The notes beneath the pieces are model-generated. The model was given only the letters and a program-made list of their open reading frames with translations. It ran no database searches and was not told the DNA's origin. The position numbers were made by a program, and so were the translations under genes. This document shows, in pieces, positions 14,075-45,212 of a stretch of DNA of 64,000 nucleotides. The DNA is from Meyerozyma guilliermondii (taxonomy: Eukaryota), in assembly GCA_051546255.1 (NCBI GenBank), contig CP128815.1, forward strand, positions 1 to 64,000. Direction: 5' to 3'. Each line of letters opens with the position of its first letter. The stretch's first letter is position 1.

Positions 14075-14087
14075 ATTTTGGTGGGGG
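14075..14087 (+). promoter_or_regulatory. ATTTTGGTGGGGG motif (Mig1/CreA-type GC box) upstream of the DUF2264 gene
   Basis: Fits AT-rich + SYGGRG; exact reverse complement at 18782-18794. Confidence 0.55.
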
Positions 14088-14121
14088 CGGGGTCGCACAA
14101 TTTTAGCTGCAAATAGATTAA

Positions 14122-15402: not shown

Positions 15403-15508
15403 GAGATTGAAGAAGTGAGTTGAAGAAGTGGGACTTTAAAGTGGGACTTCTTCAATTTGTCGAGTATGCACGATAACAATGCGCCGCATGATGCAGCCGC
15501 ATGAGCAG

Positions 15509-15521
15509 AAAATGGTGGGGG
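15509..15521 (+). promoter_or_regulatory. AAAATGGTGGGGG motif in the divergent BNR_4/beta-galactosidase promoter
   Basis: Same GC-box type as at 14075 and 18782/18849. Confidence 0.5.
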
Positions 15522-15575
15522 AGTGCGGAAAGTTATTCCACCGCCCCCATTACCTGTATGTGATGCCCCTCATGA

Positions 15576-18659
<3,084 letters not shown>

Positions 18660-18781
18660 ATACTCATATTTTTTAAGAGCTTTTTTAATTTTCAAAATTT
18701 ACAAACCTGATTTGCAGCTTGCAATTCGAGAATGAATGACTACGGTGATCAAGCTCCGGCTTCCAGATCCTTTGCTCGTCT

Positions 18782-18862
18782 CCCCCACCAAAATTAGCGG
18801 TTGCATACTCGAGGTCTGCGGGGTGCATCGGCGCTCGTATTTACCCCACCCCCACCAAAAAT
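18782..18862 (-). promoter_or_regulatory. Two copies of the GGTGGGGG GC-box motif upstream of the transporter
   Basis: CCCCCACCAAAAT at 18782-18794 and CCCCCACCAAAAAT at 18849-18862. Confidence 0.55.
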
Positions 18863-18952
18863 TACAATTGCACCAAAACTACGACAATTCATGCTGGTCT
18901 CCTCATTAGTTGCAATTATAAAGCGATGGATAATGGTCCCAATTCCAATACA

Positions 18953-27579: not shown

Positions 27580-29283
27580 TCATGCCAATGAGATGTTGTA
27601 TGATTTGTTAGAAACAAATGTGTCCCAATCATTTAGCCTGTTTGAGGATTTTCCAGAAATCTTCAAGTCACCCATACTTGTTTCATCAGCGTTGAAAAGA
27701 TCTCTCTTTTTCCATATATGCATCAAGATTTCCTTAACATCTTCAACTTTCCCCAAACAATACGCCTCTATACGGTCCAACATTTGCATAGTTTGGTATC
27801 TAAAGTCGTCACTTTCGGGCATATTAGGTGAAATTTGCGAGCCAGCAATGAACACTGTCCAAAGAAGAGTTGAGACCCATTTGAAGTCATTCTGCAAAAT
27901 TGTGTAGTCCAATATACAGAAGATCTCCTTAACAAGAATTTGCACCTCTATTTGTTCTGGATGAGCATCCAAGAGGCAACATTTAAAGTATAGTAATGTA
28001 GAGAGTCGTTTAGCGTCGCAAGCTAAAAGAAACCCCAATTCTTCAATATTGATTGTCGGATCAATGGGGACATATAAGCACTTTCCCTGACCCAAGTCAC
28101 ATAGATGATGTTCTAATTTGAACCCAAGGTCTGCAGCTTGAAGATTTTGGCCAATAGTATTGCACAAGACGGAATAGTCCCCAGGTTTCATTTGATTCCT
28201 TTCGAAAGACAAGTCGGTGATATCCGAGATTGTATCGACGAGAATCTTGTTACAGCCCATCCACGACACTTTCGATGGGGCTGTGTCTTCAATTATGTCT
28301 TCTAAAGCGAAGAAACTATTATCGTCCTTACAAGCCGTGCGCCCCATACTCTCTTGATAGTTCAACAACTCAAGTGAAAACGATAAAAGTGAAAGTTCGA
28401 GTTCATTATTCGGTCTCTTGAATGTCTGGCATGACAAAATTTGCTTACAGTGCTTCAAGTTAGCACGCCAGAGTTCTTGGCGCCCATCAGCTAGCTCATA
28501 TAGCATGAGTAGAACCAAGGAAAAAAGAGTATCTGTTCCAACTGAAGTTGACGGGCAGATATTTGCACATCCAATCAGCTTGAATGCTGAAGCTAATTCT
28601 GTCCATACATGTTTCTGGTCTTCCTGAGCAATTCTGGAAATGTACTTGGATCCCAATGCCAAAACAAGAACTAGAATATCTGGTTTTTGATGGGCATACT
28701 GGATCAAAAACTTTAGATTGAGTCCCTGTTCAAACACCACTCCCTGTAAGAGCACCGAGCTAAACGCCGAAGTCTTGGAGGAGGAAATAGTGGAAGCTGG
28801 ATTGAGTATTGGAGACACGAATTCAATGTAGTAGTTTAGGGCATAGCTCCAAAGTTGCCAGTCCGCTATGTATCCAGAACCATCTTCGATCCCGTCCAAA
28901 ATCTTGTGTCTTATTCGAACCCTAGGCAGTCCACTAATGAAATCCTGTGGCCGAAAGTTGATGAATTGAAGATTGGCATTTGTTATATTGACATAGTATG
29001 CGGCACGAAATTGCAAGGCAAGTTGTTTTGAAGTTGGTTTGGGTGACGAGTTCTTCTTCCATACACCTTCCCGTCCGAATTTTTTACCAATACTTTCATA
29101 ATCTTCTCGAAAGTGGAGTTTAACTCCATATCGACATTCAAGGCCTTTAGTTAGGCATCGTGAACAAACCGGTTTTTTTTCATCACATTTGGTTCGTTTT
29201 GCTTTGCAGTTGGCACATCCAAAATGTGATCTTTTTGTGAAGCAAGCTCTTTTTTTGGTGCCACTATTCTTTGAAATAACCAT
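27580..29283 (-). CDS. Zn(II)2Cys6 transcription factor, divergent from the fructosyl-amine oxidase gene
   Basis: CANCKAKRTKCDEKKPVCSRCLTKGLEC cluster plus a fungal-specific TF C-terminal region (LLWTVFIAG). Confidence 0.92.
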   Translation of the reverse strand: MVISKNSGTKKRACFTKRSHFGCANCKAKRTKCDEKKPVCSRCLTKGLECRYGVKLHFREDYESIGKKFGREGVWKKNSSPKPTSKQLALQFRAAYYVNITNANLQFINFRPQDFISGLPRVRIRHKILDGIEDGSGYIADWQLWSYALNYYIEFVSPILNPASTISSSKTSAFSSVLLQGVVFEQGLNLKFLIQYAHQKPDILVLVLALGSKYISRIAQEDQKHVWTELASAFKLIGCANICPSTSVGTDTLFSLVLLMLYELADGRQELWRANLKHCKQILSCQTFKRPNNELELSLLSFSLELLNYQESMGRTACKDDNSFFALEDIIEDTAPSKVSWMGCNKILVDTISDITDLSFERNQMKPGDYSVLCNTIGQNLQAADLGFKLEHHLCDLGQGKCLYVPIDPTINIEELGFLLACDAKRLSTLLYFKCCLLDAHPEQIEVQILVKEIFCILDYTILQNDFKWVSTLLWTVFIAGSQISPNMPESDDFRYQTMQMLDRIEAYCLGKVEDVKEILMHIWKKRDLFNADETSMGDLKISGKSSNRLNDWDTFVSNKSYNISLA

Positions 29284-29664
29284 ATGAGAAGAATTACGAT
29301 AAGATGCCGCACCAAAATCGCAAAATCGAAAACCTAATCGGGAACTAAATCTGAATAGTCGCGCTTGCCTAATTGAGCGAGTAGATCTGAGATCTGAGAT
29401 CTAGGCAGATCTAGTCAGTGGTATTTGTAAGCCGAATCTACTTGAATCTTATGATGTGGGGTCACTTCGGATTGAGGGGTACACATTTTGGGACATGAAT
29501 TCAAAAATAGTTATTCAATATCGATAATTTTCAAAATTAACCTCACAATCGTTGGCTGCAAAATTCAATAACTCAAAAGTAAAGCCAATTCTCATTGAAA
29601 AACAAGTCTCAGTCAACTCAAATTACCTTGACTAATTTAATCTAATTTCTAAGTTTCGAAAACT

Positions 29665-29745
29665 GCGGCGGGGCGGTTTGGAGCGGTTTGCGGCAGATTT
29701 TGTTTGGGATGTTCCCCATACAGGAAGCTACCCGCACCGCACCGG
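29665..29745. promoter_or_regulatory. Cluster of CGG/CCG triplets upstream of the FAOD TATA box (candidate Zn2Cys6 sites)
   Basis: gcggcggggcggtttggagcggtttgcggc and ccgcaccgcaccgg in an otherwise AT-rich promoter; TATATAAAA at about 29774. Confidence 0.4.
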
Positions 29746-29805
29746 ATCCACCTTCCTCGTCACTTTGGTAGGGTATATAAAAGAAGTCCATGGCTCTGGA
29801 TCATC

Positions 29806-31089
29806 ATGGAGTCGATAATTATAGTTGGTGCCGGTACTTTTGGGCTTTCCACAGCCTTACAGCTTGCCAGAGATGGATACAAGAACATAAAATGTTTTGA
29901 CAAGTTTCCGGTTCCATCTGAGATAGCTGCTGGAAACGACAGTAACAAGATTTTTCACTACGATTATGTTGCTCCCCTGGCTAAACCCAATTCAAAAGAA
30001 CGGTTGAGTCTCGAAGCATTACACCTTTGGAAGACAGATCCGGTGTACAAACCGTACTATCATCCGGTAGGATTTATCCTGGCTGCAAGTTCCGATGCTC
30101 CATTACTGCATGATAAGGAATACTATGAAGAGTTGCAAAAAAACGGACTTCGCAATTATCGTTATATTTCAACTCCCGAGGAGTTTCGTGAGTATTTGCC
30201 CATTTTAAAGGGCCCGTTACCCAACTGGAGAGGATATGTTCTCGACGGAGATAACGGATGGTTGCATGCTCGAGACTCATTGAAAAGTGCATACGAAGAA
30301 TGCAAACGATTGGGAGTGGAATTTGTGTTTGGAGACGATGGGGAAATTGTCGAATTACTTAACGAAAATGGAAAGTTGACGGGAATTAGGGCCAGATCTG
30401 GTGCCATATTCTCGGCACAAAAATATGTTCTCAGCTCTGGTGCAAATGCAGTAACGTTGTTAAATTTCCAGAGACAGCTAGAAGGTAAATGTTTCACTTT
30501 GGCACATTTCAAAGTGACGGATGAAGAAGCTAAAGCATTTAAAAGCTTGCCGGTCCTTTTCAATGCCGAAAAAGGGTTTTTTTTCGAGGCTGATGAAAAT
30601 AACGAAATCAAAATTTGCAACGAGTACCCTGGATTTACCCACACAAATGAATCCGGAGAGTCTATCCCACTCTACCGGATGGAGATTCCACTCGAGTCAG
30701 CACTTGAAATTAGACAATACTTGAAAGAAACCATGCCTCAGTTTGCTGATAGACCTTTCACCAAGACAAGAATTTGTTGGTGTACCGACTCTCCCGACAT
30801 GCAATTGATCTTGTGTACTCACCCAGAATACACCAACCTTATTGTAGCATCGGGTGACTCTGGAAATTCGTTCAAGATCATGCCAATCATTGGCAAATAT
30901 GTCAGCAAGGTTGTTACCAAAGGTGATAAAGGATTGGATCCGGAAGATAAAGAATGCTGGAAATGGCGTCCTGAGACTTGGGACAAGCGGGGGCAGGTCC
31001 GCTGGGGTGGTCGATACCGTGTTGCGGATTTGAACGAAATTGAAGAATGGGTTTCTGTTGAAAATCCCACACCACACAAACTAGAATAA
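29806..31089 (+). CDS. Fructosyl-amine (fructosyl amino acid) oxidase / amadoriase, 427 aa
   Basis: IIIVGAGTFGLSTAL, AAGNDSNKI, RICWCTDSPD, ASGDSGNSFK, WKWRPE. From ATG 29806 the length and His51/Asn354 match my recollection of Pichia sp. N1-1 FAOD. Confidence 0.93.
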   Translation: MESIIIVGAGTFGLSTALQLARDGYKNIKCFDKFPVPSEIAAGNDSNKIFHYDYVAPLAKPNSKERLSLEALHLWKTDPVYKPYYHPVGFILAASSDAPLLHDKEYYEELQKNGLRNYRYISTPEEFREYLPILKGPLPNWRGYVLDGDNGWLHARDSLKSAYEECKRLGVEFVFGDDGEIVELLNENGKLTGIRARSGAIFSAQKYVLSSGANAVTLLNFQRQLEGKCFTLAHFKVTDEEAKAFKSLPVLFNAEKGFFFEADENNEIKICNEYPGFTHTNESGESIPLYRMEIPLESALEIRQYLKETMPQFADRPFTKTRICWCTDSPDMQLILCTHPEYTNLIVASGDSGNSFKIMPIIGKYVSKVVTKGDKGLDPEDKECWKWRPETWDKRGQVRWGGRYRVADLNEIEEWVSVENPTPHKLE

Positions 31090-31538
31090 AAACAAGATTA
31101 CAACATACATGTCTAAAATCAATATATGTCTACCAACAATAGATCTCTACAAACAATAATTATCTCGATTTATGATTCCTTCTGGGTAAATGGTGATATC
31201 TTTTTGGTACTATTTAGCACAATCAATTAGTAAATTATCTATACTTATCTCGGCGTCAGTTGCCTTTAAATGATGTGGGGTTCTTACTAATGCAAAGCTA
31301 GAAGGTCGATAATTCTTGCCAATTATGTTCATTCTTGGAGATAATTGGCACTGCCATCCGTTTCGGCTCTCCTCCACCTTCTGCTGATTTCGCAACCAAT
31401 TGAATTCGCAGCCGATTGCGCATTGATAAGGATACATGCAGTACATCGAATTGGGCGGAGGTTCGTTAGGAAGGTCGAGTCGCGAGCGCGGAATTGACAC
31501 TTCCAGTATAAAATGGACCAACTTTGGTGGTTGCTCTA

Positions 31539-33167
31539 ATGAGCTTTGAAACGGAAAAAAAGAACCAGCTGGTAGAGGTTGATATAGAAGAAATAAATTC
31601 CCAAGCTCCCGCTTTGGTTGTGCAAAATAAAGACGGAGAAGAATTGAAGCGTGCCCAAATTGTCGATCAACCAACAACTACAAAATGGGAAGTTTTCATG
31701 TATGCACTCTACTACTTTGGAAATAATGCTACTGGTCCTAATCACTTTACTCCTACGCAATATCAAAACTTGTTGAGTCAATCTGGTTGGATAAAAGGAA
31801 AATCAAATGTTTCATGCTCGGATGATCCAAATGGACTGTGTGTGGTATCTTTTGCCGGCACAGTCAAGACGGTGAATTCGGTTGTCTTGATAAATCTGGG
31901 CATCGGATTTGCGTTACAGTCGGTGGTTTTCTTGTTCCTTGGAGGGTTGTCTGATTATGGCCAGTTCGGTTCATGGGTACTCGTTGCCCTTTCTGTTTTG
32001 AGCTGGGGAGTTCAATTTGGTTTCTTGGGTGTACATGACGGAAGCAAACATCAAGCAGCTTTCGCATTGAGTATACTTTCTGCTTTAGGGTATCAAGGAT
32101 GTCAATCATTTTGGACTGCGATGTTTCCACGGTTGGCAAGAAATTTGCCCAAGACAAGAGCCGCTGAAGAAAAAATGCTTAACGGTTCAATCCTGGAATC
32201 TGAATACCATAAGGTGGACTCATACTATCGTAACAAAATCACAAACTACAGTCTTGCTTTTTCCATGTTGGGTTTCACCCTCGTGAGTGCCATTTCTGTT
32301 GGAATCTTAAAGTCGTTGGATTCTACTGCCAATCAAGCAAATAATAATTGGGCTATGTCTGTGTGTATAATGTTTGCAACCGTTTGGTGGATGGTGTTTG
32401 GTATTCCGTGGTTTTTCGCCGAAAAGAAAAGAGTCAATGAAAAGTTACCTGAAGGTGTGAGCTACTTGAGCTTGCCATTCAAACAATTGGGATATGCATT
32501 CAAGAGCTTTCTGAAATTGAAGCAAACTGCGTTATACTTGTTCTCTTACTGGATGTTAGGTGACGGTTTGAATACTGCTATTAGTCTTCAATCAACTATT
32601 CAAAACGAAGTGATTTCTTACGATATGGTCACTTCCATGTATTTGAATATGATCAATGGTGGTACCAATATTTTAGGTACGATATTGTTTTGGTGGTTCC
32701 AGAAAACTTTTAAAGTCTCCACAAGAAACATGTACATTATTTGTTCCGTTTTCATCACTTTGTTCCCAATTTATGGATTGATTGGAACGTGGACAAACAA
32801 GATTGGTTTCCACAACATATGGGAAGTTTGGTTTTATAACGCTTACTTTGGTATATTCATTGGTCCCTATTATGCATACTCATCTACGATGATGAGTGAA
32901 GTTTGTCCAAGAGGTAAAGAATTTGTGTTTTTTGCTATTTTTAGCACCATTAACAAGACTTCCAGCTTCATTGGACCTTTTGTTTCTTCCGCCATCATTG
33001 ACGACACAGGAAATAATAATAGTGGATTTTCATTCCTAGTGGCCCTTTGCTGTGTGTCATTGGCATCTTCATTTTTCTTGAACGAAGACAATGCAAGAGT
33101 TCAAGCTGAGGAGTTCTTACTTGAAGAGAAAAAGCGCATAGCGAATGGTGAATCGCTCGTGTTCTGA
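31539..33167 (+). CDS. ATG22-like MFS transporter, copy A (542 aa)
   Basis: About 12 TMs; GGLSDYG, FWTAMFPRLARN, GDGLNT, SEVCPRG.EF.FF..FS.INK.SSFIGP. First ATG at 31539. Confidence 0.85.
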   Translation: MSFETEKKNQLVEVDIEEINSQAPALVVQNKDGEELKRAQIVDQPTTTKWEVFMYALYYFGNNATGPNHFTPTQYQNLLSQSGWIKGKSNVSCSDDPNGLCVVSFAGTVKTVNSVVLINLGIGFALQSVVFLFLGGLSDYGQFGSWVLVALSVLSWGVQFGFLGVHDGSKHQAAFALSILSALGYQGCQSFWTAMFPRLARNLPKTRAAEEKMLNGSILESEYHKVDSYYRNKITNYSLAFSMLGFTLVSAISVGILKSLDSTANQANNNWAMSVCIMFATVWWMVFGIPWFFAEKKRVNEKLPEGVSYLSLPFKQLGYAFKSFLKLKQTALYLFSYWMLGDGLNTAISLQSTIQNEVISYDMVTSMYLNMINGGTNILGTILFWWFQKTFKVSTRNMYIICSVFITLFPIYGLIGTWTNKIGFHNIWEVWFYNAYFGIFIGPYYAYSSTMMSEVCPRGKEFVFFAIFSTINKTSSFIGPFVSSAIIDDTGNNNSGFSFLVALCCVSLASSFFLNEDNARVQAEEFLLEEKKRIANGESLVF

Positions 33168-33483
33168 TTTATATAGTTATTTTCAATTGATTACACTGGT
33201 GCATCTCACCTTTATGGTGGATGAACAACACTTTAGACTTCAGTACTATTCTTACAATTCACCAGGTTGCAACCGATTCAATGCACCAGTGCACCAGCAT
33301 CTGATACGTTGCAGAGGAACTGTAAGAGGTGCTGATTATAGCACAATTATAATGTTTGCTTGTTATTCTGCGCTCTGAGGGATTGCTGGTCGGTGCCAAT
33401 TCTCCTTCCATGTGCTTTCCTCTTCTATCACTGTGTCATTTGCAACTCTACGAATGGCTGCAAAATTTGCTAATTTCATAATT

Positions 33484-33590
33484 CTACGAACACCATTCTG
33501 TGGGATTATATAAGTCCCTTGTCCTCCTTGGTTTTCATCTGAGTAACGCAAAGGAGGCTATAAATCAATTCTAAATTGGGGCAAGAAACA
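33484..33590 (-). pseudogene. Truncated, decayed 3' end of the ketopantoate-reductase-like gene
   Basis: Near-identical to 39584-39713 (e.g. ccttggttttcatctga, taaatcaattctaaattggggcaagaaaca) with an internal deletion. Confidence 0.85.
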
Positions 33591-34042
33591 GCTACGAAAA
33601 TACAGAATTCTGTTTCCTACAGAATAACATTGGGATTTGTGGTTGCATCATCGCCTGAATTAGCAGGTGCTATATTTCAACATCAGGTTTTTACCACTTC
33701 TCTATGTGGAGTCTATGCTACTACCTGTGATTAAGTTTCATCACGCTTGGAAAGAAGTTACCCTTTACATCCTAGGTGCCTCTGGTATTAGATATCATAT
33801 ACGAGCTCTCCGCAAATGAAAGGTCACGTAATGTCATTATTGTTATTCGCATCCGCCACTTCGGTTGCAATATCTCAAGCGCTGAAAGACTCCTACTTCA
33901 TTTGCAGCTTGTGCAATTGCTGGATTTGTTTCTGGACTCTTTTGGTTCCAAATTCGCAACCTTGATAGGTTCTCAGTTTGTCGTATCACCTTCCTATTTG
34001 GGAACTTGCCTACGCAAGTGAAAACTACTCGATTGTTTCATA

Positions 34043-35966
34043 ATGAAAAGAATACGTCGAGGAACCAAACGCGGAGGATGCTTGGCTTGCAAGAAACGAA
34101 AGTAGGTATAGTGTTATGTCTTTAAGAATGTGGATTTTAACCTTACAGTAAACAATGTGACTACAATACGAAAAAAAATGCTTGTTCCTTTTGTTTGCGA
34201 GTTAACATTCCATGCGAAAGACCTGGCTTTAGTGTAATTGCATACAATGGAAACAAAAAGAAGGAGCCAATTAGTCTCAAGTTCAACCCGCTAAATAATC
34301 AGCAAAGAATAAATTTTGAGCTTTGCAATGAAATCATTAGCGATTATTTATCTTCAGCCAATCGGTGTGATTTAACTTCATTTACCATAATAACCCCGGG
34401 CATCGAAAGTATCTACGAAAGAAGTTTAACATTCTCCGAACATTTGATTTTGTATGAAAAAACTAGAGAAATTCCTCTTGTTGATGATAAAACGTCTATC
34501 GAAAGGTCTACCAAAACCGCATTTGGCATTCAAAGTGCAAACGAACTACCTCATAGGATAGCAACTTCTAAGAAGAGGATTTACCTGGAACCTAGAATTG
34601 AATTTGTGTCTGACAAAGTACCTGCGGATATTCTGAATCACGATTTACGTGATATCGATACTGGCAATTTTATCAATGAATTATTCATACAAATGCCAGC
34701 TTTAAAACTGCAAAAATTACATGTACCCAATTACATTTCTTTACAATCTGCAAGTGCATTATTCAACAGCTTTTGTTTGGAATTTCCTCAGGAAACTTGC
34801 AAACTATTCTATGCAACTTGTGATGAGAATTCAATTGCATATCGTGATTTCACCAAGCTATCTTTGAAGGTTTATATTTCGCTTGCATTCAGCAATATTA
34901 CAGTATTCAAGGCTCTCCTATATTGGTCAGCCTCATACTTCCAGCTGAAGGAGAAATCTGTTGAAGAATCACTTCTATCGAAGCTTATGAACGACATTGT
35001 TCAAGACATGAACAAAAGATTGATTTACAAATCTTCTGCCTGTTGTGATCATATGATCGCAATAGTGTGTATTTTGTTTGAAGTGGAAAATTTGAAACAG
35101 CAAGTGGACTCCAAATTTTGGTTGAAGCTTACGGGCTTGGCCATTAAAATACTTTCAATGAGAGGAGGCGTCGATCAACTAAGTAAAACGAATATGGGTT
35201 TTTCTTTGCGAGATTATTTGGAACATATTTCTTTACTAGATTCGGGTTTAATCTCTTGGATCATGAAATGCAAAGGTTTAACATACAAGACATGCAATCG
35301 ATATACATGTTACCTGCCGCTTCCAATCCAAATTCATATTATAAGTGTATGAAGAGCATTTGTTCTGTTGTTGGTGAGTCCTTACATCTTTACAACTTGA
35401 AGAAGGTCGCCATAAATGCCGATGATCTTAATGAGCTGTTAGGATATAACCATTACCAGAACATTGAAACTGTGATCAAAGATGCGAAGTTTCTATTAAA
35501 ACAATTGAGTTCAATAGATGTTCCTGATGATGATTCTGAGATAATGAGAATCGATTCTCATATAATGAGACGCATTGCAGAGTTCTCAAAAGAGGCAACA
35601 GTCCTATTGATATATCAGTTGATATACAATAATTCATCTAGGACAACCACAACTTTGCTTCAAGTTATGAAGATGATACCTTTACTTCGAGAATTGTTTG
35701 AATTGTATCATTCAAATCAAAACTCCACGCAAGTACTTTTAATACTTCCTATTTTTGTTCTTGGTTGTAACCTTTATAAACATTCTTATCGGAGGTGGTT
35801 CATTGAAAATATTGACCGGATTTATTTGAAAACAAAAACTGCTAAAATTTTGACTGTTAAAACATTGGTTAAAAAAGTGTGGACCTTGGACGATAATGGT
35901 AATAAACCAGTACAATGGCCGGAAATAAGTGAGCACGAGGGACTATTATTGCCTTTTTATATCTAA
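34043..35966 (+). CDS. Zn(II)2Cys6 transcription factor with a 47-nt intron (34102-34148) and a single-base frameshift near 35199-35203
   Basis: Splicing GTAGGT...TTTAAC..TACAG gives CLACKKRNKQCDYNTKKNACSFCLRVNIPC in frame with ORF 34195. Adding one T in the T5 run joins ORF 34195-35352 to ORF 35256-35966 (..MGFFFARLFG..LILPIFVLGC..). Confidence 0.85.
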
Positions 35967-35985
35967 AATGTTCGTCTTTTCTCAC

Positions 35986-37038
35986 TTACCTCTTTCTTGT
36001 GTTGGCGGTATACTCTTTTTCAATTTCTTCGACCAAGGTTCCTACCATATAAGCTGCACCATATGAAAAGGCATAGCCTTTACCATTGAATCCATAAGCA
36101 TGAAGGATGTACTTGTTCTTCGCAACCTGTTCTTTTTCCAATCTAAACCCTCCTTTTCTAGCAGGTCTTATTCCAACGACATAACCCGCAATATCAGGCG
36201 CTTTTGAAATCACCTCAGGTGCGAGCTTATGAGCTCTTCTGATTTCATCCTCAACAATTTCCATATCAATGTCAGCGTGAGTTTTATTGGGTTCATTCAC
36301 ACCTCCACAAACCACTACCCCAGAGAGTGGCCGAGGTATTACATATGTATACTCTTCACCGCTACGACTAAACCCTTTGTCAGTTTTCGTCCGAACAAGC
36401 ACATTTTGTCCTCGATTGGGATAGCATTTATCATCTTCCAACCCTTTGATTGTCATAGGTCCAATTCCAGATGCGTTAACAAAAACGATACTATCTTCGT
36501 AGTCTTGATAGAGCTCATCCATGGATGCAATTGATCTGCAAATAAAGTGGCCGCCAAGGTTTTCAATCTCTTGTTTTATGAATTTGAGATAACGACGAGG
36601 CTCGATTGCTAATGTTTCATACTCACAACCATATTCAAACCCAGTACCCTCATATTTTGATTTTTCCATATCTCTGAACTTTGGATTTACTCCCTTAAAC
36701 CATAGGTCCAGATCCTTGGGTTTTTTCTCAAAATATTCATCTAATTGAATAACACATACTCCACATTCAGGACTATTGAAGTTGTCACTCTTGAACCGGC
36801 GGTATGATACTGCCTCTAGATAACGATGGAGATCGTTAGGTAAGTCTGGAGCACCATGCCACAATGCACCAGCCCAGGTTGACGCATACCATATATCTTC
36901 GTCGCCAGGAAGATGTTTGGCAACAATCGTGACTTGAAATCCCTGCTGCAATAAGGTTCTTGCGGTGACACAACCGATAATTCCAGCACCTAAAACGACA
37001 ATTCTTCTTTCCTGAAATGGACTGCTACCTAATGACAT
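35986..37038 (-). CDS. D-amino-acid/D-aspartate oxidase family flavoprotein
   Basis: IVVLGAGIIG, YASTWAGA, VNASGIG, YPNRGQ, TYVIPR, VGIRPARKGG.R, HAYGFNG.GY..SYG. First ATG at 37038. Confidence 0.92.
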   Translation of the reverse strand: MSLGSSPFQERRIVVLGAGIIGCVTARTLLQQGFQVTIVAKHLPGDEDIWYASTWAGALWHGAPDLPNDLHRYLEAVSYRRFKSDNFNSPECGVCVIQLDEYFEKKPKDLDLWFKGVNPKFRDMEKSKYEGTGFEYGCEYETLAIEPRRYLKFIKQEIENLGGHFICRSIASMDELYQDYEDSIVFVNASGIGPMTIKGLEDDKCYPNRGQNVLVRTKTDKGFSRSGEEYTYVIPRPLSGVVVCGGVNEPNKTHADIDMEIVEDEIRRAHKLAPEVISKAPDIAGYVVGIRPARKGGFRLEKEQVAKNKYILHAYGFNGKGYAFSYGAAYMVGTLVEEIEKEYTANTRKR

Positions 37039-37242
37039 TCTTATGCCTCCAAGGTGCCGCGGCCATCTTATATTCACTATGCGCGCTTCCTAATTCGGAA
37101 GGTGATACGATGCATACCAGCTAATACGACTCGATTAGATACGGTTTATCCGTTTTAACATTAATTCTCACTAATCAATATGCCGAAGTCTATAGAGTAT
37201 AGATTACATCCTGCTGTTTATTGGCAATTTCTCCTTCCCAGA

Positions 37243-37256
37243 GTGTACTGGTGTAC
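37243..37256 (+). repeat. Internal telomere-like 14-mer GTGTACTGGTGTAC (candidate Rap1 site)
   Basis: Exact 1.75 copies of the telomere repeat, G-rich on +, in the DAO/ATG22-B divergent intergenic region. Confidence 0.6.
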
Positions 37257-37683
37257 AAGACTGAATAGGTGAATATATGAAGAAAGCTACAAGAAAGTAG
37301 ACTAAGAAAGAGAAGGAATACACACTCTTTGTAATTGAACAAACCTAAGGAATGAACCTAAGGTAGCTTTTTACTGAAGGTAGAACTTATGGCTTATTCT
37401 ATATCTCGCCTTCAGTTGCCCCGATGGCCGTAGGTGAGTTCCTGAAGGTGTACAGACCCAGAAGGAGAAGGCGACCGGGCCGGACTCCAGGGATTTCGGG
37501 CGATAATTGCCATTGTTTCAACTAGATCTCTGCTCCACCTGAATTTCGCAGCCAACTGGATTTGGCTGCAGATAGCGCATTGATAAGGGTACATGCAGTA
37601 CTCACATCTGAGTGGACGCTCAATTGCAAGGCCGAGTCATGAGGGAAAAACTATAAAATGGTACCACTCCGGTGAATGCTCTA

Positions 37684-39312
37684 ATGAGTTTTGAAGAGGA
37701 AAAAAAGAACCAGCAAGTAGAGGTGGACATAGAGGAGGTCAATTCTCAAGCTCCCGCTTTGGTTGTGCAAAATAAAGACGGCGAAGAATTAAAGCGGGCT
37801 CATATTGTAGATCAACCAACAACTACAAAATGGGAAGTTTTCATGTATGCACTCTACTACTTTGGAAATAATTCTTCCGGCCCCTCTTCTTTCACGCCCA
37901 CCCAGTATCAGAACTTGTTGAGTCAATCTGGTTGGATAAAAGGAAACCGGAAAGCTTCATGTTCGGATGATCCCAACGGACTGTGTGTGGTTTCGTTTGC
38001 CGGTACGACCAAGACAGTGAATTCGGTGGTGTTACTTAACCTGGGCATTGGTTTTGCATTGCAATCGGTGGTTTTCTTGTTTCTTGGAGGTTTGTCCGAT
38101 TATGGCCAATATGGTTCTTGGGTACTTATAGGCCTTTCGTTGTTGAGTTGGGGAGTTCAATTGGGCTTCTTGGGTGTTCATGATGGAAGCAAACACGAAG
38201 CAGCTTTTGCATTGAGTGTGCTTGCCTCGTTAGGGTACCATGGATGTCAATCTTTTTGGACGGCCATGTTTCCACGTTTGGCAAGAAACTTGCCAAAGAC
38301 AAGAGAAGCAGAAGAAAAAATGCTCAATGGCACAATTCTGGAATCTGAGTATCACAGTGTTGACTCTTACTATCGTAACAAAATCTCAAATTACAGTTTT
38401 GCATTTTCCATGGTTGGTTTCGTGCTCGTGTGTGCCATTTCAATTGGCATTTTGAAGGGCATGGATTCTACCGCCAGTGATGCGAACAACAATTGGTCTA
38501 TGTCCATCTGTATTATGACTGCAACAGTGTGGTGGATCGTATTTGGTACTCCTTGGTTCTTCACCGAAAAGAAAAGAGTCAATGAAAAGTTACCCGAAGG
38601 TGTGAGCTACTGGACCTTACCCTTTAGACAATTGGTATATGCGTTCAAGAGTTTTGTGAAGTTGAGGCAAACTGCGTTATACTTGTTCTCCTACTGGTTG
38701 TTGGGTGATGGCTTGAACACCTCTATAAGGCTTCAATCGACTATTCAGAACGAAGTGATATCTTACGATATGGTCACTTCCATGTACATGAACTTTCTTA
38801 ACGGTGGCACCAGCATAGTAGGTGTGTTAATGTTCTGGTGGCTCCAGAAAACCTTCAAAATTTCCACGAGAAACATGTACATTTTGTGCTCTATTTTCAT
38901 TACGTTGTTTCCACTTTACGGATTGATTGGAACCTGGACAAACAAAATTGGTTTCCATAACGTTTGGGAAAATTGGTTCTACAACGCCTACTATGGTTTG
39001 CTCATTAATCCGTATTATGTATATTCATCAACAATGATGAGTGAAGTTTGTCCAAGAGGAAGGGAATTTGTGTTTTTCGCCATTTTCAGCACTATTAACA
39101 AAACCTCAAGTTTAATTGGACCTTTTGTTTCCTCCGCCATCATTGAAGACACGGGAAACAATAATACTGGGTTCTCCTTCCTTGTGGCAATATGCATCTT
39201 GTCGTTGGTGTCCTCATGTTTCTTGGATCAAGACAAGGCAAGAGTTCAGTCTGAGGAGTTTTTACTCGAGGAACAAAGACGGATAGCGTATGGTGAGTCG
39301 CTCATATTCTAA
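37684..39312 (+). CDS. ATG22-like MFS transporter, copy B (542 aa)
   Basis: Colinear, same-length paralogue of copy A (31539-33167). First ATG at 37684. Confidence 0.85.
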   Translation: MSFEEEKKNQQVEVDIEEVNSQAPALVVQNKDGEELKRAHIVDQPTTTKWEVFMYALYYFGNNSSGPSSFTPTQYQNLLSQSGWIKGNRKASCSDDPNGLCVVSFAGTTKTVNSVVLLNLGIGFALQSVVFLFLGGLSDYGQYGSWVLIGLSLLSWGVQLGFLGVHDGSKHEAAFALSVLASLGYHGCQSFWTAMFPRLARNLPKTREAEEKMLNGTILESEYHSVDSYYRNKISNYSFAFSMVGFVLVCAISIGILKGMDSTASDANNNWSMSICIMTATVWWIVFGTPWFFTEKKRVNEKLPEGVSYWTLPFRQLVYAFKSFVKLRQTALYLFSYWLLGDGLNTSIRLQSTIQNEVISYDMVTSMYMNFLNGGTSIVGVLMFWWLQKTFKISTRNMYILCSIFITLFPLYGLIGTWTNKIGFHNVWENWFYNAYYGLLINPYYVYSSTMMSEVCPRGREFVFFAIFSTINKTSSLIGPFVSSAIIEDTGNNNTGFSFLVAICILSLVSSCFLDQDKARVQSEEFLLEEQRRIAYGESLIF

Positions 39313-39583
39313 TAGAGCTGTTTAGATTGATTTAAGTAGATGGCCAGGCGCTACTAATTTTCAAAAAATAAGATATTCCGTACGGACAAGCCCACGAGTG
39401 CACCAGTCCATCAACTTATAGTACATAGAGGTCGAGCAAATCCGAATAGTGGGCGGAGAGCAGCATATCGTAGCTTCGATCCCCTTTTGCTGGCTAGTCT
39501 ACTGCTCCTTCGGTTTTTTTCTTGTCTACCTTTTGACTTTTGCAACTTTACGAATGGTTGCAAAATTTGAAAATTTCATTATT

Positions 39584-40597
39584 TTATGAACACTCTCCAT
39601 TCTGTGGGATTGGTCGTTCCTTCGGCACCGTCACAAGACCCTTGGCCTCCTTGGTTTTCATCTGAATAACGCAAAGGAGGTTATAAATCAATTCTAAATT
39701 GGGGCAAGAAACATTGTTCCTTTTCGCAGTTCTAACGGCATTTCCACAGATGACTTCTGACTCGATATAGTTTCCCTTACGAAGGTCAACCAACATGGAA
39801 GGAGAATAATAGATCCCGTCGTCTGAACGAATCATAAAATCCATAATGTCTTCTGGAAGATCAACCCCATCAGATTTTGCAATTGCCAACACTTCTCTCA
39901 TGGCGCTTCTGACCATGGAATCAACTCCTCCAAAAAGTTCGAGTCTTCCCACATCGACTCCAGTCAAGGTACAAATTGAATTGAGGGTAGCATTATATAC
40001 CAACTTGCGCCATCTGGTGTACTTGACATCTTCATCGTAGGTGCATTCATTCTTTCCATTCAGGTATATTGACACAAACCTTTCACTGGCATTTTTTTGA
40101 GATTCAATACTCAAATTTTCGTTTATAAAATAGCCAATTTTCAACGAATCCTTACCCTCGTGATGAATGAAACCATTGTGGTTTGTAGACGAAATCATAC
40201 TAACTCCACTCAAAACAACATTTTTCGGATACCTCTTGATAACGTCAGCACCAATATCAACTCCATTTTGAAGCAAAACTATGGTGGAAGTTTCGGAAAC
40301 AAGTGGTGCTACCAAATCTTCCACTTTGAAAATGTCAGGGAGATTTTTCGTGGTGACCAAAATATACTCAAAAGGACCATATTCCACAGCTTTTTCAACG
40401 CTATCAACTACATTAGTAGGTTTAAACGACTCAACATGGCCATAATCACATGAGTCAATTTTGTATCCTTTGTTCACCACAACATTATAATCAGACCTAA
40501 CCACCGCAGTGACGGAAGCTTTACCTCCCAACTCTAGCCCATAAGCTGCAATGGTGCCAACACCTCCAGAACCAATTAGTACAATGTTACTTTTCAT
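39584..40597 (-). CDS. Ketopantoate reductase (ApbA/PanE) family oxidoreductase
   Basis: LIGSGGVG, LVTTKN, VLLQNGV, RWRKLVYNA, YSPSMLVD, ESEVICGN. Confidence 0.9.
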   Translation of the reverse strand: MKSNIVLIGSGGVGTIAAYGLELGGKASVTAVVRSDYNVVVNKGYKIDSCDYGHVESFKPTNVVDSVEKAVEYGPFEYILVTTKNLPDIFKVEDLVAPLVSETSTIVLLQNGVDIGADVIKRYPKNVVLSGVSMISSTNHNGFIHHEGKDSLKIGYFINENLSIESQKNASERFVSIYLNGKNECTYDEDVKYTRWRKLVYNATLNSICTLTGVDVGRLELFGGVDSMVRSAMREVLAIAKSDGVDLPEDIMDFMIRSDDGIYYSPSMLVDLRKGNYIESEVICGNAVRTAKRNNVSCPNLELIYNLLCVIQMKTKEAKGLVTVPKERPIPQNGECS

Positions 40598-41137: not shown

Positions 41138-41917
41138 TCATTTCACCAACGAATCAACCAACGATTCGGGGACATCGCACAATTGGACCTCCAACGTTCC
41201 GAGCAAATAGAACAGGTCCAACTTTGGATTGTAAGATAGTTCAATTGCTTTGTCGAGGTGCTCTTTCGTAATAGCCGGTCCAAATGGAGTGGCACAAAAA
41301 TAGCGTGCCAATGCAAATGTCAAGACTTGAAAGTTTGCATGGTCTGGCTTTAGGTGAATAATCAAGTAGATGAGAACTTCACTTATTCCAAGAGTATCTC
41401 GAGGAAGCAATGTGCATTTGAGCCAACTCGTGGGAATCCTTTCTTCCCCCACGGCTTTCATCTGAGCATAGTAAAGTGATGGTAACGTTCGGCCATACAT
41501 TTCCAAATATTCGAAATCATGATTGGGAGAGTGACGTACCTCCTTGTCAGATATGAAAGATTCTAGACATTCTATCAACTTCTTGCAAATTCTCACTAAA
41601 ATGAACTCTTGATCCTGGTACAATCGTTTATCATTGATATTGTATCTGGTTAAAAATTCGTTCAACAGAATAGTTTCACCAACTTTTGGCGAGTAATCTT
41701 CAATCATTTTTTTCAATTCAACATTAGTTAATGTGTTATGTTCCAAAATTTCGCAGCCATGTAGTGCTGCAATCTCATTTTCGAGCCGTGCATTTTCTCG
41801 CTCTAAAGCTTCGACTTTGGCTTCAAGAAGATTGAAACGCTCAGCATTCCGCATACGTAGCTTCTGCTGCGACTGGCGCATCCGTTCCAACCTCTTTTCT
41901 CTCTTTTCATCAATCAT
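41138..41917 (-). CDS. Atypical Yap-like bZIP protein, copy 1
   Basis: Basic region KRLERMRQSQQKLR plus leucine zipper; C-terminus (TLGISEVL..H..LTFALARYFCATPFGPAI..HLDKAI) resembles the Yap/PAP1 C-terminal domain. Confidence 0.8.
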   Translation of the reverse strand: MIDEKREKRLERMRQSQQKLRMRNAERFNLLEAKVEALERENARLENEIAALHGCEILEHNTLTNVELKKMIEDYSPKVGETILLNEFLTRYNINDKRLYQDQEFILVRICKKLIECLESFISDKEVRHSPNHDFEYLEMYGRTLPSLYYAQMKAVGEERIPTSWLKCTLLPRDTLGISEVLIYLIIHLKPDHANFQVLTFALARYFCATPFGPAITKEHLDKAIELSYNPKLDLFYLLGTLEVQLCDVPESLVDSLVK

Positions 41918-41947
41918 GGTAGTTTTTCAGTTGTACTTTTGAATGTC

Positions 41948-42024
41948 TTAGTAATGTGAATCACCATTTTCGCGCATGAATCACGATGTTCGGGTGTGAA
42001 TCACGATTTTTGGATGTGAATCAA
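41948..42024. promoter_or_regulatory. Yap site TTAGTAA followed by four (G/A)TGAATCA(C) sites at about 20-bp spacing
   Basis: TTAGTAA 41948-41954; sites at about 41955, 41976, 41995 and 42015. Confidence 0.7.
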
Positions 42025-42163
42025 CTCCGACTAACAAAGAGGAGCACAATCCGCTGTTCTGGTGATGTACCACGAGCGATTGCTGCAAAAATGGGTTCCA
42101 CTTAATAAGCCCACTTAATAAACCCCTGTAGTATAAATAGATGGAACAACCCAGTTCTCTCCA

Positions 42164-42961
42164 ATGACTTCGTATTTTGTGACTGGAACTTCCAGAGGAA
42201 TTGGTTTGGGTTTGGTCAAGGAAATCTTGAAAAGCCCAAACGCTACTGTTTTTGCTCTTGTTAGAGGTTCTTCCAACACTGACGAGTTGAAAGCTATCAA
42301 GTCTTCCAGACTTCACATTGTGACTGCTGATATTTCCAACACATCTGAAGTCGATGAAGTAGTTAAGCAAGTTGAAAAAATGACCAGCTCGTTGGATGTG
42401 ATTATCTTGAACGCTGCGTTCCCTATGTCAGACTTCAAAACCCCTTTGCAATTAACCGAGACCCCAGAAGCTTTCAAGGAGTTCGTTGAAGAGTCAAACA
42501 AGATCATGTATGTCAACACCTATTCTCAACTTTATGTGGCCAACAAGTTTCGTCCCTTGCTCTCCAAGGGAGAAAAAAAGAAGATTGTTTTCGTATCTTC
42601 TGGTCTCGGCCATGCTGGTTGGGTTTATAAGGGAGGTCAGCATTACATGACGTCTTATGCTTCCAGTAAAGCGGCTCTTAACCTCATCGTTGCTCAACTC
42701 GGTGCTGTTCTCAGAAGCGAAGGATTCACCGTGCTTGGACTCTGTCCCGGAATTGTCAACTCCGGTCGGTTAGCCGATGAGGAAGTCGAACAAACCTACG
42801 GAATTTTCTTTTCGGGCGCCAGAAGAGTCAACCCTACATTCAAGGGAATTTTGCTGTTGGAAGAGGCAAGTACCAGATTCATGCAAGCGGTTGAGTTCTA
42901 CGGCCCAATGTCCAACGGAAGATTCATTAGCGCCAACGGAACCGACGATGTGTTTGCTTAG
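42164..42961 (+). CDS. Short-chain dehydrogenase/reductase (YKL071W/Osi1-like), copy 1
   Basis: TGTSRGIG, LDVIILNA, VSSG, YASSK, LCPG.V. Confidence 0.9.
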   Translation: MTSYFVTGTSRGIGLGLVKEILKSPNATVFALVRGSSNTDELKAIKSSRLHIVTADISNTSEVDEVVKQVEKMTSSLDVIILNAAFPMSDFKTPLQLTETPEAFKEFVEESNKIMYVNTYSQLYVANKFRPLLSKGEKKKIVFVSSGLGHAGWVYKGGQHYMTSYASSKAALNLIVAQLGAVLRSEGFTVLGLCPGIVNSGRLADEEVEQTYGIFFSGARRVNPTFKGILLLEEASTRFMQAVEFYGPMSNGRFISANGTDDVFA

Positions 42962-43370
42962 ACTTGCTTAGACCATAGGTATTCGCTTAGGAAGCTAGGA
43001 ATAAAGCCGGAGCTAAAAGAGATGTAATTAAGGTAAGAAATTAATTCTCATTTTTTGCAGCCGCAGCTGATGAATTAGCCGAGACGAATCGTCGTTGGTG
43101 TTCAGTCATGTTCTGGCAGGATTACAGTAATTTCTGTAAATTTCAAGCAATTCGTGGCCTTATCTTTGGTGCCGACAAATAAAAGTGGTCAATTAGCGTA
43201 ATTCTAGAAACAGACGAACTTCTTACCAAGAACTTGCTCTCGTTCCAATTAGTATCCCTGTTAATGTTCTTGAAAATTATTCTTCGCTACTATGTTAATG
43301 GCATTAAGGCTAGAAGTGATAAGTTTGAGTATGGTGGACCCTAGTATTAGAGACTTGTTTCTTGCTTTTT

Positions 43371-44150
43371 TCACTTCACTAACGAATCAACCAAAGACTC
43401 GGGTACATCGCACAATTGGACCTTCAATGTTCCGAGCAAATAGAACAAGTCCAATTTTGGATTGTAAGATAGTTCAATTGCTTTGACAAGGTGCTCTTTC
43501 GTGATAGCCGGTCCAAATGGTGTGCCACAAATATAACGTGCCAATGCAAATGTCAAGACATGAAAGTTTGTATGGTCTGGCTTTAGGTGAATATTCAAGT
43601 AAATGAGAACTTCACTTATTCCAAGAGTATCTCGAGGAAGCAATGTGCATTTGAGCCAATTCGTAGGAATCCGCTTCTCCACCACGGCTTTCATCTGAGC
43701 ATAGTAGATTGAAGGTAAGCTTCGACCATACATTTCCAAATATTTGAAACTGTGATTGGCAATGTGAAGTACCTCTTTGTCAGATACAAAGGCTTCTAAA
43801 CAATGTATCATCGTTTTGCAAATATTCACCAAAATAAACTCTTGATCTTGGTACAACCGCTTATCATTAATATTGTTTCTGATTATGAATTCGCTCAACA
43901 GGATAGTTTCACCAACATTGGGCGAGTAAACGTCAATCATCTTTTTCAAATCAACATTGGTTAAAATGTACTGTTCCACAGTATCGCAATCTACTAGTGT
44001 TGCAATCTCTTTTTCAAGTTCCGCATTTTTCACTTTTAAAGATTCGATTTCTGATTCAAGAGAGTTGAAACGTTCAGCTTTACGCAAACGTAGCTTATGC
44101 TGCGACTGCCGCATCTGTTCCAACCTCCTTTGTCTCTTTTCATCTAGCAT
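43371..44150 (-). CDS. Atypical Yap-like bZIP protein, copy 2
   Basis: Same length (259 aa) and colinear with copy 1; basic region RRLEQMRQSQHKLR. Confidence 0.8.
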   Translation of the reverse strand: MLDEKRQRRLEQMRQSQHKLRLRKAERFNSLESEIESLKVKNAELEKEIATLVDCDTVEQYILTNVDLKKMIDVYSPNVGETILLSEFIIRNNINDKRLYQDQEFILVNICKTMIHCLEAFVSDKEVLHIANHSFKYLEMYGRSLPSIYYAQMKAVVEKRIPTNWLKCTLLPRDTLGISEVLIYLNIHLKPDHTNFHVLTFALARYICGTPFGPAITKEHLVKAIELSYNPKLDLFYLLGTLKVQLCDVPESLVDSLVK

Positions 44151-44174
44151 AGTATCAGAAGTATTTTGGATGTC

Positions 44175-44341
44175 TTAGTAATGTGAATCACAATTTCGGT
44201 GTGAATCACAATTTCGGTGTGAATCACAATTTCGCGTGTGAATCACAATTTCGGTAAAAACCACTATTCTCCGTGTGATTATCTCCGTGTGAATCACATT
44301 TCGCGGCCCAAATTCTCCTGGAAATTCTTCTGTGATTCACA
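44175..44341. promoter_or_regulatory. Yap site plus four tandem 18-bp TGTGAATCACAATTTCGG units and two further TGTGAWTCACA palindromes
   Basis: TTAGTAA 44175-44181; units at 44182, 44200, 44218, 44237; extra palindromes at 44288 and 44331. Confidence 0.8.
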
Positions 44342-44414
44342 GCATCGACCTAAAATGCTTGCCACTTATTAAGCCAATGTAGTATAAATAGATCAAAATA
44401 CTCTCTTCTTACCA

Positions 44415-45212
44415 ATGACATCGTATCTCGTTACTGGAGCTGCTAGAGGAATTGGTTTGGGTTTGGTCAAGGAAATATTGAAAAAACCTGACACTACTGT
44501 TTTTGCACTTGTTAGAGGCTCTTCCAAAATCGACGAGTTGAAAGCTATCAAGTCTTCAAGACTTCATATTGTAACTGCCGACATTTCTAACCCCTCTGAA
44601 GTCGATGAGGTTGTTAAGCAAGTTGAAAAATTGACCAGCTCATTGGATGTGATTATCTTGAGTGCTGCCCTCCTTGAGATCAGCCTCAAGACACCATTGG
44701 AGTTGACAGAGTCTCCGGAAGCTTTCAAGGAGTTTGTTGAAGAGTCAAACAAGATCATGTATGTCAACACCTATTCTCAACTTTATGTGGCCAACAAGTT
44801 TCATCCTTTGCTTTCCAAGGGAGAAAAAAAGAAGATTGTTTTCGTATCTTCTGGTCTCGGCCATGGCGACTGGGTATATAAGGCTGGCCATCAACGCTTG
44901 ACGGCTTACTCAATGGGTAAGGCTGCTCTTAACCTCATGGTTGCTCAACTCGGTGCTACGCTTAGACACGAAGGATTCACTGTGCTTGCTCTCTGTCCCG
45001 GTATTGTCAATTCCAGTAGAGCACCCCTCGAAGAAGTCGAGGAAAACTATAAAATTTTCTTTGATGCCGCCAGAAGAGTCAACCCTACATTCAAGGGAAT
45101 TTTGCAGGTGGAAGAAGCATGTACCAGATTCATGGAAGCTGTTGAGTTCTATGGTCCTATGTCCAACGGAAGGTTCATTAGCGCCAATGGAACCCACGAC
45201 GTATTTGCTTAA
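44415..45212 (+). CDS. Short-chain dehydrogenase/reductase, copy 2
   Basis: TGAARGIG, YSMGK; 265-aa colinear paralogue of 42164-42961. Confidence 0.9.
   Translation: MTSYLVTGAARGIGLGLVKEILKKPDTTVFALVRGSSKIDELKAIKSSRLHIVTADISNPSEVDEVVKQVEKLTSSLDVIILSAALLEISLKTPLELTESPEAFKEFVEESNKIMYVNTYSQLYVANKFHPLLSKGEKKKIVFVSSGLGHGDWVYKAGHQRLTAYSMGKAALNLMVAQLGATLRHEGFTVLALCPGIVNSSRAPLEEVEENYKIFFDAARRVNPTFKGILQVEEACTRFMEAVEFYGPMSNGRFISANGTHDVFA

Follow-up and report, generated by a model that had tools for sequence, protein, structure and literature searches.

The question raised by this locus is whether a yeast maintains, side by side, one catabolic module for Amadori compounds and another for D-amino acids, or a single unit next to which unrelated genes have come to lie. 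The locus occupies positions 27580-40597 of a 64-kb stretch of Meyerozyma guilliermondii DNA (positions 1 to 64,000 of contig CP128815.1; "the window" in what follows). It holds genes for two zinc-cluster (Zn2Cys6) transcription factors (TF1 and TF2), a fructosyl-amine oxidase (FAOD), a D-amino-acid-oxidase-family flavoprotein (DAO), two ATG22-family transporters (T1 and T2) and a reductase of the ApbA family. The original prediction divided these genes into two modules. What stands of that proposal is the connection of FAOD with a transporter, which is borne by homologues located on equal-sized sequence records in relatives, by motifs common to the two promoters and by the adjacent, divergent Zn2Cys6 gene; what does not stand is a separate D-amino-acid module with a transporter of its own. 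On balance it is probable that the locus is a subtelomeric nutrient-scavenging island built around a conserved unit of FAOD and an ATG22-family transporter (together with TF1) for Amadori compounds, and that the juxtaposition of TF2 and DAO is secondary.

FAOD (29806-31089, + strand) is a 427-residue fructosyl-amine (amadoriase-type) oxidase (all proteins were read with translation table 12, CTG = Ser). Alignments to Amadoriase I (4wct, 8e-101, residues 3-416) and Amadoriase II (3djd, 2.4e-97, residues 3-419) extend over the full length of the protein, the match to sarcosine oxidase (1zov, 4e-12 only) being far weaker. The N-terminal GxGxxG motif of amadoriases is retained, as is their NDxNK motif, and Cys324 (in RICWC) stands opposite Cys335 of Amadoriase II (3djd). 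Covalent FAD attachment is at that residue in Amadoriase II and at Cys342 in Amadoriase I (PMC5459902, in the portion available). Fungal FAODs convert a fructosyl-amino acid to an amino acid, glucosone and H2O2 (as given in an excerpt of PMC5813194), and the same products are predicted for the enzyme encoded in the window, which thus resembles Aspergillus fumigatus Amadoriases I and II and the fungal FAOD/FPOX enzymes in full-length homology, FAD-linked cysteine and predicted reaction. A canonical type 1 peroxisomal targeting signal (PTS1) is absent from FAOD and from its 30 nearest homologues.

Divergent from FAOD is TF1 (27580-29283, - strand), a 567-residue Zn2Cys6 transcription factor in which a zinc cluster (PF00172, Zn_clus, 3.6e-10, residues 22-55) and a fungal-specific transcription factor domain (PF11951, Fungal_trans_2, 2.3e-38, residues 149-567) are joined in a single intact frame. 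(Read with table 11, TF1 matched generic Zn2Cys6 clusters only.) Downstream of FAOD lies T1 (31539-33167, + strand), a 542-residue ATG22-family transporter of the major facilitator superfamily (MFS) that matches PF11700 at 3.9e-144 over profile positions 1-481 of 482. Profile and structure matches thus bear out the first of the two predicted gene groups, Zn2Cys6 factor, FAOD and ATG22-like transporter, in its entirety.

Linkage of FAOD to a transporter gene in other yeasts was assessed by a proxy applied to FAOD, T and DAO, namely the presence of homologues on records of exactly equal size (longest record per match). Three FAOD-T pairs of this kind are found when the 6 nearest homologues of FAOD (62-65% identity) are compared with the 10 nearest of T (54-63%): P0002 with P0084 (8928 bp), P0006 with P0082 (12928 bp) and P0004 with P0091 (12077 bp). 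Equality of size by chance is very unlikely, and FAOD and T are therefore no more than ~9-13 kb apart in three relatives. Since the three transporters concerned, P0084, P0082 and P0091, fall in two subclades of the transporter tree, the linkage predates the duplication that generated T1 and T2; that it is ancestral is strongly suggested by these comparisons. Conservation of linkage was one expectation of the original prediction, and by this coarse proxy it holds for FAOD and T but not for DAO: among the 10 nearest DAO homologues (56-91% identity; record sizes 18579, 1082739, 30921, 148669, 3567, 2838, 10526, 7560, 64246 and 18193 bp), none is on a record equal in size to that of any FAOD or T match.

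The promoters of FAOD and T1 are unrelated by duplication but have three features in common. The divergent TF1/FAOD promoter (29284-29805) contains ATGATGTGGGGT at 29451, a CGG-rich block at 29666-29693, the repeat CCGCACCGG (CCG-N3-CGG) at 29737 followed by TCCACCTTC at 29747, and a TATA box near 29772. The T1 promoter (31090-31538, + strand) contains ATGATGTGGGGT at 31270 and CCGTTTCGG (likewise CCG-N3-CGG) at 31358 followed by TCCACCTTC at 31373. The 12-mer ATGATGTGGGGT occurs exactly twice in the 64 kb, at these two places. TCCACCTTC is present in 4 copies where 0.52 are expected (none of 100 shuffles reaches 4); two of the copies are those in the FAOD and T1 promoters, and both of these begin 1-6 nt after a CCG-N3-CGG everted repeat. 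The everted repeat itself is found 7 times in the window; the FAOD, T1 and DAO/T2 promoters, 2.5% of its length taken together, account for 3 of these (P about 5e-4 by our own arithmetic, post hoc). A Zn2Cys6 dimer may bind at these repeats. The divergent DAO/T2 promoter (37039-37683, 645 bp) has CCGGGCCGG at 37475 and a conserved block at 37575-37601; on its T2 side it has neither the 12-mer common to FAOD and T1 nor a CCGTTTCGG site upstream of the conserved block. Two further sequence elements may be recorded here: CCGTTTCGG is also present at 20983-20991, between the genes for a sugar transporter and a PDR-type ABC transporter, and a 17-bp tandem repeat, ATACATGTCTACAAACA (3.2 copies, 31105-31158), immediately follows the FAOD stop codon.

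T2 (37684-39312, + strand) is a 542-residue paralogue of T1 (83.6% protein identity; PF11700 1.7e-141, profile positions 1-481 of 482), and the boundaries of the duplication that relates them can be read from the DNA. In a self-BLAST comparison, 31387-33168 aligns with 37543-39313 (81.5% over 1784 bp) and 33439-33590 with 39539-39713 (78.9%; the 3' end of ApbA and DNA downstream of it), and homology then stops abruptly at 33590/39713. Copy 1 (31387-33590, + strand) consists of proximal promoter, T1 and a relic of the ApbA 3' end; copy 2 (37543-39713, + strand) consists of proximal promoter, T2 and the 3' end of the intact ApbA gene. The relic (33439-33590, - strand) has suffered two internal deletions and ends sharply at 33590; its segment 33589-33509 encodes ApbA residues 296-322 at 85% identity (1.6e-9). 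It is the only relic found beside the duplicates by tblastn, which detected none of FAOD, DAO or the transcription factor genes. A single piece of ~2.2 kb was thus copied, comprising the proximal promoter and the transporter along with the last ~40 codons of ApbA. The presence of the ApbA relic 3' of T1 implies that the adjacency of ApbA and transporter is older than the duplication, and ApbA is therefore tied to the transporter and not specifically to DAO. To count two modules is, in this respect, to count one element twice.

T1 and T2 have diverged to a synonymous divergence (dS) of 0.86 with dN/dS of 0.105, and both copies have been kept under purifying selection. A sibling species has a counterpart of each: P0078 pairs with T1 (89.7% identity, against 85.2% to T2) and P0079 with T2 (93.0%, against 84.1% to T1). 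The duplication thus dates, as judged by these identities, to the common ancestor with this ~90%-identical sibling. (A third protein, P0080, is 98.7% identical to T2 but has the first 60 residues of T1, which may reflect gene conversion in another strain or a chimeric assembly.) In a tree of 24 rows (T1, T2 and 22 of the 117 T matches) the T1 and T2 lineages make up one clade (100/100 support), sister to other yeast relatives, and their branch lengths are symmetric. Among 227 columns conserved by 9 or more of the 10 nearest relatives, lineage-specific changes number 3 in T1 and 4 in T2, all of them conservative (K to R or L to I, for example), so that no sign of a change of substrate in either transporter is seen at these positions.

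T1 and T2 belong to a sparse yeast clade whose nearest named relatives are from Trichomonascus (57% identity) and, more distantly, the Atg22-like proteins of Pezizomycotina (about 42%). No Atg22 of the CTG clade is among the 117 T matches at E<=1e-60 (among the 7999 candidates scored, those sharing most words). An acidic motif of the EEFLL type is kept in the C-terminal tails of T1 (33090-33167), T2 (39235-39312) and the relatives P0082-P0091, throughout the yeast transporter clade; it bears what we take to be a weak likeness to di-leucine sorting signals, and may be a sorting signal.

GATAAG elements were part of the original prediction, and they are indeed present upstream of both transporters (31425 and 37582) and of the reductase (40634, 37 bp upstream of the ApbA ATG). 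They are not enriched, however: the window has 37 such sites where 30.43 +/- 5.75 are expected, a count equalled or exceeded in 15 of 100 shuffles. Moreover, the sites at 31425 and 37582 occupy homologous positions in the duplicated promoter and are one duplicated site rather than two independent ones. That site is embedded in a block, GCGCATTGATAAGG(A/G)TACATGCAGTAC (31418-31444 and 37575-37601), which is identical in 26 of 27 positions despite the dS of the coding sequence next door and is probably a conserved cis-element. The shorter GATAA core is a different matter in the T1 promoter, where 6 copies in 449 bp rank among the richest 0.6% of sliding windows; the four remaining intergenic regions (including FAOD/TF1, DAO/T2 and ApbA upstream) are ordinary.

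ApbA (39584-40597, - strand) is a 337-residue NAD(P)H reductase of the ApbA/KPR family with ApbA and ApbA_C domains. It scores above the family cut-off (TIGR00745, 163.7 bits against 141.35) and below the cut-off of every equivalog model, all of which are bacterial (the best, NF004887, 144 bits against 360); the best solved structure is 3i83 (2.4e-38). It therefore has the domains and the TIGR00745 score of the ketopantoate reductase (ApbA/PanE) family, and fails all of the function-specific models. The KPR family includes reductases of 2-oxo acids, examples being PanE of Lactococcus and the ketoisovalerate reductase of fungi. ApbA may act on glucosone or it may act on 2-oxo acids, and either substrate is a guess. 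No paper on reduction of glucosone downstream of FAOD was found in the literature searched.

The remaining two genes are TF2 and DAO, which are arranged tail-to-tail with 19 bp between their stop codons. TF2 (34043-35966, + strand) is a Zn2Cys6 gene, as predicted, but not a single frame. Exon 1, beginning with the ATG at 34043, is 59 nt long (34043-34101) and is followed by a 47-nt intron (34102-34148; GTAGGT ... TTTTAAC ... CAG), with exon 2 starting at 34149. Removal of the intron yields MKRIRRGTKRGGCLACKKRNKQCDYNTKKNACSFCLRVNIPCE, a complete CX2CX6CX8CX2CX6C zinc cluster that is not restored in the unspliced reading. The spliced N-terminus matches that of the homologue P0308 (52% identity), which starts MKRIRR...CFACKSRNKQCD; several other TF2 homologues start within the second half of the zinc cluster. 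The match to P0308 and these truncated starts, which would be expected had gene callers missed the first exon, support the intron model. Farther along, a one-base shift in the TF2 frame falls in the interval 35190-35202, next to a short run of A. An intact 563-residue orthologue, P0307, matches frame +3 up to 35202 and frame +2 from 35190, at 86% and then 90% identity. The break is either a very recent mutation or an assembly error, because identity to the orthologue equals that of the neighbouring genes. A second intron was considered as its cause and rejected, since the intact P0307 reads through the site.

DAO (35986-37038, - strand) is a 350-residue flavoprotein of the D-amino-acid/D-aspartate oxidase family. 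Its structure matches are headed by Rhodotorula D-amino-acid oxidase (DAAO; 1c0i, 2.9e-40), followed by 7ct4 (2.6e-30) and human D-aspartate oxidase (DDO; 6rkf, 2.3e-21). R291 and R294 (in G-x-R-P-x-R) and Y232 (in Y-x-I-P-R-P), which we take to be residues with known roles in the DAAO/DDO family, are invariant in all 64 homologues compared. Asn248 occupies the position of Rhodotorula Tyr238, and is neither the Tyr presumably characteristic of DAAO acting on neutral substrates nor the Arg presumably characteristic of DDO; Asn is also found here in 9 yeast relatives, and Lys or Arg in the other 55 of the 64. The family assignment of DAO is thus right, and its substrate class is not fixed by Asn248. 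DAO has no PTS1 (its C-terminus is ...NTRKR), and some of its relatives end in -YKL or -HRL. The second predicted group is accordingly confirmed as to the identities and positions of DAO, the ATG22-like transporter and ApbA.

How these genes came together can be reconstructed in part. No significant similarity between TF1 and the TF2 orthologue is seen in pairwise comparison or by tblastn; the two factors are unrelated beyond family level, there was therefore no whole-module duplication, and a history in which they are paralogues generated by one is rejected. On the present map TF2 and DAO are flanked by the truncated ApbA relic on one side and by the second transporter copy on the other. We infer that the original unit was (TF1-)FAOD-T-ApbA, and the simplest history would be a tandem duplication of the transporter with the tail of ApbA, the TF2-DAO pair now being at the junction. 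What was taken for a D-amino-acid module would then be a secondary juxtaposition, in which TF2 and DAO form a regulator-enzyme pair of their own and T2 and ApbA represent the remaining half of what was duplicated. Gene order at the locus is fitted equally well by an alternative in which the transporter and the ApbA 3' end were copied out of an ancestral TF2-DAO-T-ApbA array and inserted beside FAOD, a history that would count against the FAOD-centred unit and that fits the lack of co-occurrence of DAO less well.

In the conserved FAOD-transporter unit that we favor, the transporter would deliver fructosyl-amino acids (Amadori compounds) to the cytosol, where FAOD, lacking a PTS1, would oxidise them to amino acid, glucosone and H2O2, yielding nitrogen. 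TF1 would turn on FAOD and T1 by way of the CCG-N3-CGG repeats with the TCCACCTTC that follows them, and of ATGATGTGGGGT; the GATA sites would put the transporter promoter under nitrogen control. Several observations weigh against this proposal. Occurrence of FAOD and T on the same record is deduced from equal record sizes and not from gene order, and the comparison with DAO, which uses the longest record per cluster and may draw on differing sets of species, is a coarse proxy and not proof. Coupling of the two genes is not obligatory: Kuraishia and Ogataea have FAOD homologues (55-58% identity) and are absent from the 117 T matches, and Trichomonascus vanleenenianus has a 57% T homologue and is absent from the 77 FAOD matches. 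The shared promoter motifs were found post hoc and not predicted. Finally, the sole characterised role of the ATG22 family is efflux of amino acids from the vacuole, not uptake (PMC9959203, in the part available).

That last point is the ground for a different proposal, internal salvage, in which T1 and T2 would be vacuolar exporters releasing glycated amino acids that arise from vacuolar proteolysis, and a cytosolic FAOD would recover the amino acid. Vacuolar efflux is what Atg22 does in Saccharomyces cerevisiae, and two of four Atg22-like proteins of Beauveria bassiana are wholly vacuolar, although one of the paralogues is also associated with the cell membrane, so that plasma-membrane members of the family exist (PMC9959203, again as far as the available text goes). 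The missing PTS1 of FAOD and its 30 nearest homologues is consistent with a cytosolic enzyme here too, and the conserved EEFLL tail, if its presumed, weak likeness to di-leucine signals is meaningful, would fit as well. Nevertheless, the subtelomeric location, the GATA-rich transporter promoter and the patchy distribution are better suited to an accessory nutrient trait than to housekeeping repair, and we regard salvage as rather unlikely.

The reading closest to the original prediction has two co-adapted modules, T1 serving FAOD with fructosyl-amino acids, T2 serving DAO with D-amino acids, ApbA reducing the 2-oxo acid that DAO makes, and TF1 and TF2 each controlling its own set. It draws on the 645-bp divergent promoter that DAO and T2 share, on the convergent arrangement of T2 and ApbA, on the retention of T2, DAO and TF2 orthologues at 91-93% identity in the sibling species, and on the loss from the T2 promoter of the ATGATGTGGGGT and CCGTTTCGG elements common to the FAOD/T1 side; enzymes of the KPR family that reduce 2-oxo acids also exist. 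We nonetheless consider it decidedly improbable. T2 is a recent, lineage-specific copy of the FAOD-linked transporter, with 4 conservative changes at the 227 conserved columns and a branch symmetric with that of T1, the ApbA-T adjacency antedates the duplication, the record sizes of all 10 DAO homologues differ from those of T homologues, and TF2 is frame-shifted in this assembly; the D-amino-acid group as a separately adapted module is not upheld. The most sceptical reading denies any functional unit and sees accessory genes gathered by duplication and rearrangement in a fast-changing subtelomere. A window that opens with a telomere array and whose first ~50 kb hold two local duplications, a permease gene with an in-frame stop, the frame-shifted TF2 and a mixture of accessory genes is the kind of setting in which this might happen. 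It would leave unaccounted for the equal-sized FAOD and T records of three relatives (54-65% identity), the rare motifs common to the FAOD and T1 promoters and the strong purifying selection on both transporter copies, and is in our judgment very improbable.

Enzyme, transporter and zinc-cluster regulator in one place is a familiar fungal design. For nitrate, the cluster of Hansenula polymorpha combines a transporter with two Zn(II) activators (PMC4559421); another pathway-specific cluster, hxn of Aspergillus nidulans, serves nicotinate (PMC5746545; both as described in partial texts). Fungal catabolic clusters such as these likewise set enzyme, transporter and regulator side by side, with substrate induction and nitrogen control to be expected; the class of substrate, Amadori compounds, and the ATG22 family of the transporter would be new here, both being predicted from sequence. 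Fungal FAOD/FPOX enzymes have been studied as isolated proteins for diagnostics, whereas FAOD in the window adjoins genes for a transporter and a regulator. As the original prediction supposed, no dedicated or linked transporter or regulator of a fungal FAOD was found in the literature searched, which lacks most of the subscription journals in which much FAOD work is published.

Bacteria have Amadori operons (soc of Agrobacterium, for santhopine; frlABCDR of E. coli; fra of Salmonella) that unite regulator, transporter and deglycating enzyme in one locus. The soc system uses amadoriase-like FAD oxidases, and frl and fra use a kinase and a deglycase; the transporters are of ABC, APC or Dcu type and the regulators are repressors. 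Unlike these operons, the present locus is eukaryotic and has an MFS carrier of the ATG22 family, a Zn2Cys6 factor and separate promoters. The family to which T1 and T2 belong, with an end-to-end Pfam match, is that of S. cerevisiae Atg22 and the four Atg22-like proteins of B. bassiana, whose locations vary (PMC9959203, within the text available). Fungi are known to have Atg22-like genes in multiple copies, with roles outside autophagy. Vacuolar amino acids are the only substrates so far assigned to the family.

The window starts with a telomere-type array (2-394) of 49 copies of the 8-bp unit CACCAGTA (period 8, 49.1 copies, 100% matches), whose reverse complement we take to be the telomere repeat of Meyerozyma (Candida) guilliermondii. 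It therefore begins at a chromosome end, and the cluster lies 27-41 kb from that end. Accessory genes occupy the first ~53 kb, among them those for an aspartyl protease and a PDR-type ABC pump and the cluster itself; from there on housekeeping genes appear (UTP15, mitofilin, an actin-related protein, glycogen branching enzyme). tRNA genes, as marks of rearrangement, were not found in the window. That the organism is a CTG-Ser yeast, to be read with table 12, is plain from its CTG codons, which are scarce (0-8 per gene) and mostly opposite polar residues in homologues: Ser in 56 of 64 at DAO codon 110, Thr in 44 and Ser in 17 of 68 at T1 codon 219, and Asn in 58 of 68 at T1 codon 120. The exception among 9 CTG sites is FAOD codon 92, which is hydrophobic in relatives. 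Other Leu codons are 80-81% opposite I/L/V/M/F in the FAOD, T1 and DAO alignments (which comprise 58 of 77 FAOD, 68 of 117 T and 64 of 112 DAO matches). The standard genetic code was rejected accordingly; the difference amounts to 1-5 residues per protein.

Other parts of the window have features of their own. Genes for DUF2264 (with DUF2264_C), BNR_4, a GH2 beta-galactosidase and a sugar transporter stand in a row at 12156-20575; DUF2264 and BNR_4 are mainly bacterial families, so that these genes may be a cluster for glycan use that was acquired horizontally. At 41138-45212 a divergent pair of bZIP and SDR genes is tandemly duplicated (81.7% nucleotide identity; dS 0.40-0.48, dN/dS 0.23-0.29). 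Each of the divergent promoters there holds 4-6 copies of the palindrome-like GTGAATCAC in tandem units of 18-20 bp (41954-42023 and 44182-44278), possibly autoregulatory bZIP sites. An AA_permease_2 gene (46011-47678, - strand) has one in-frame stop and is a pseudogene or the product of an assembly error.

Although fungal amadoriases are widely used in diabetes diagnostics, little is understood of their natural role, their regulation and the supply of their substrate. Conserved pairing with a transporter, and a regulator next door, makes the question of why fungi have amadoriases directly testable. One may go further and suppose that this yeast ATG22 clade is dedicated to Amadori compounds, that with FAOD and TF1 it makes up the first eukaryotic regulon for them, and that ApbA disposes of the glucosone; this extension is tentative, and we hold it to be doubtful. 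If it is true, fungal amadoriases would gain a physiological role and the Atg22 family a substrate outside autophagy, Amadori compounds being the first candidate substrate for its non-autophagy branch. The history of the duplication is, for its part, a clear case of a subtelomere making apparent modules by copying a gene beside an unrelated enzyme.

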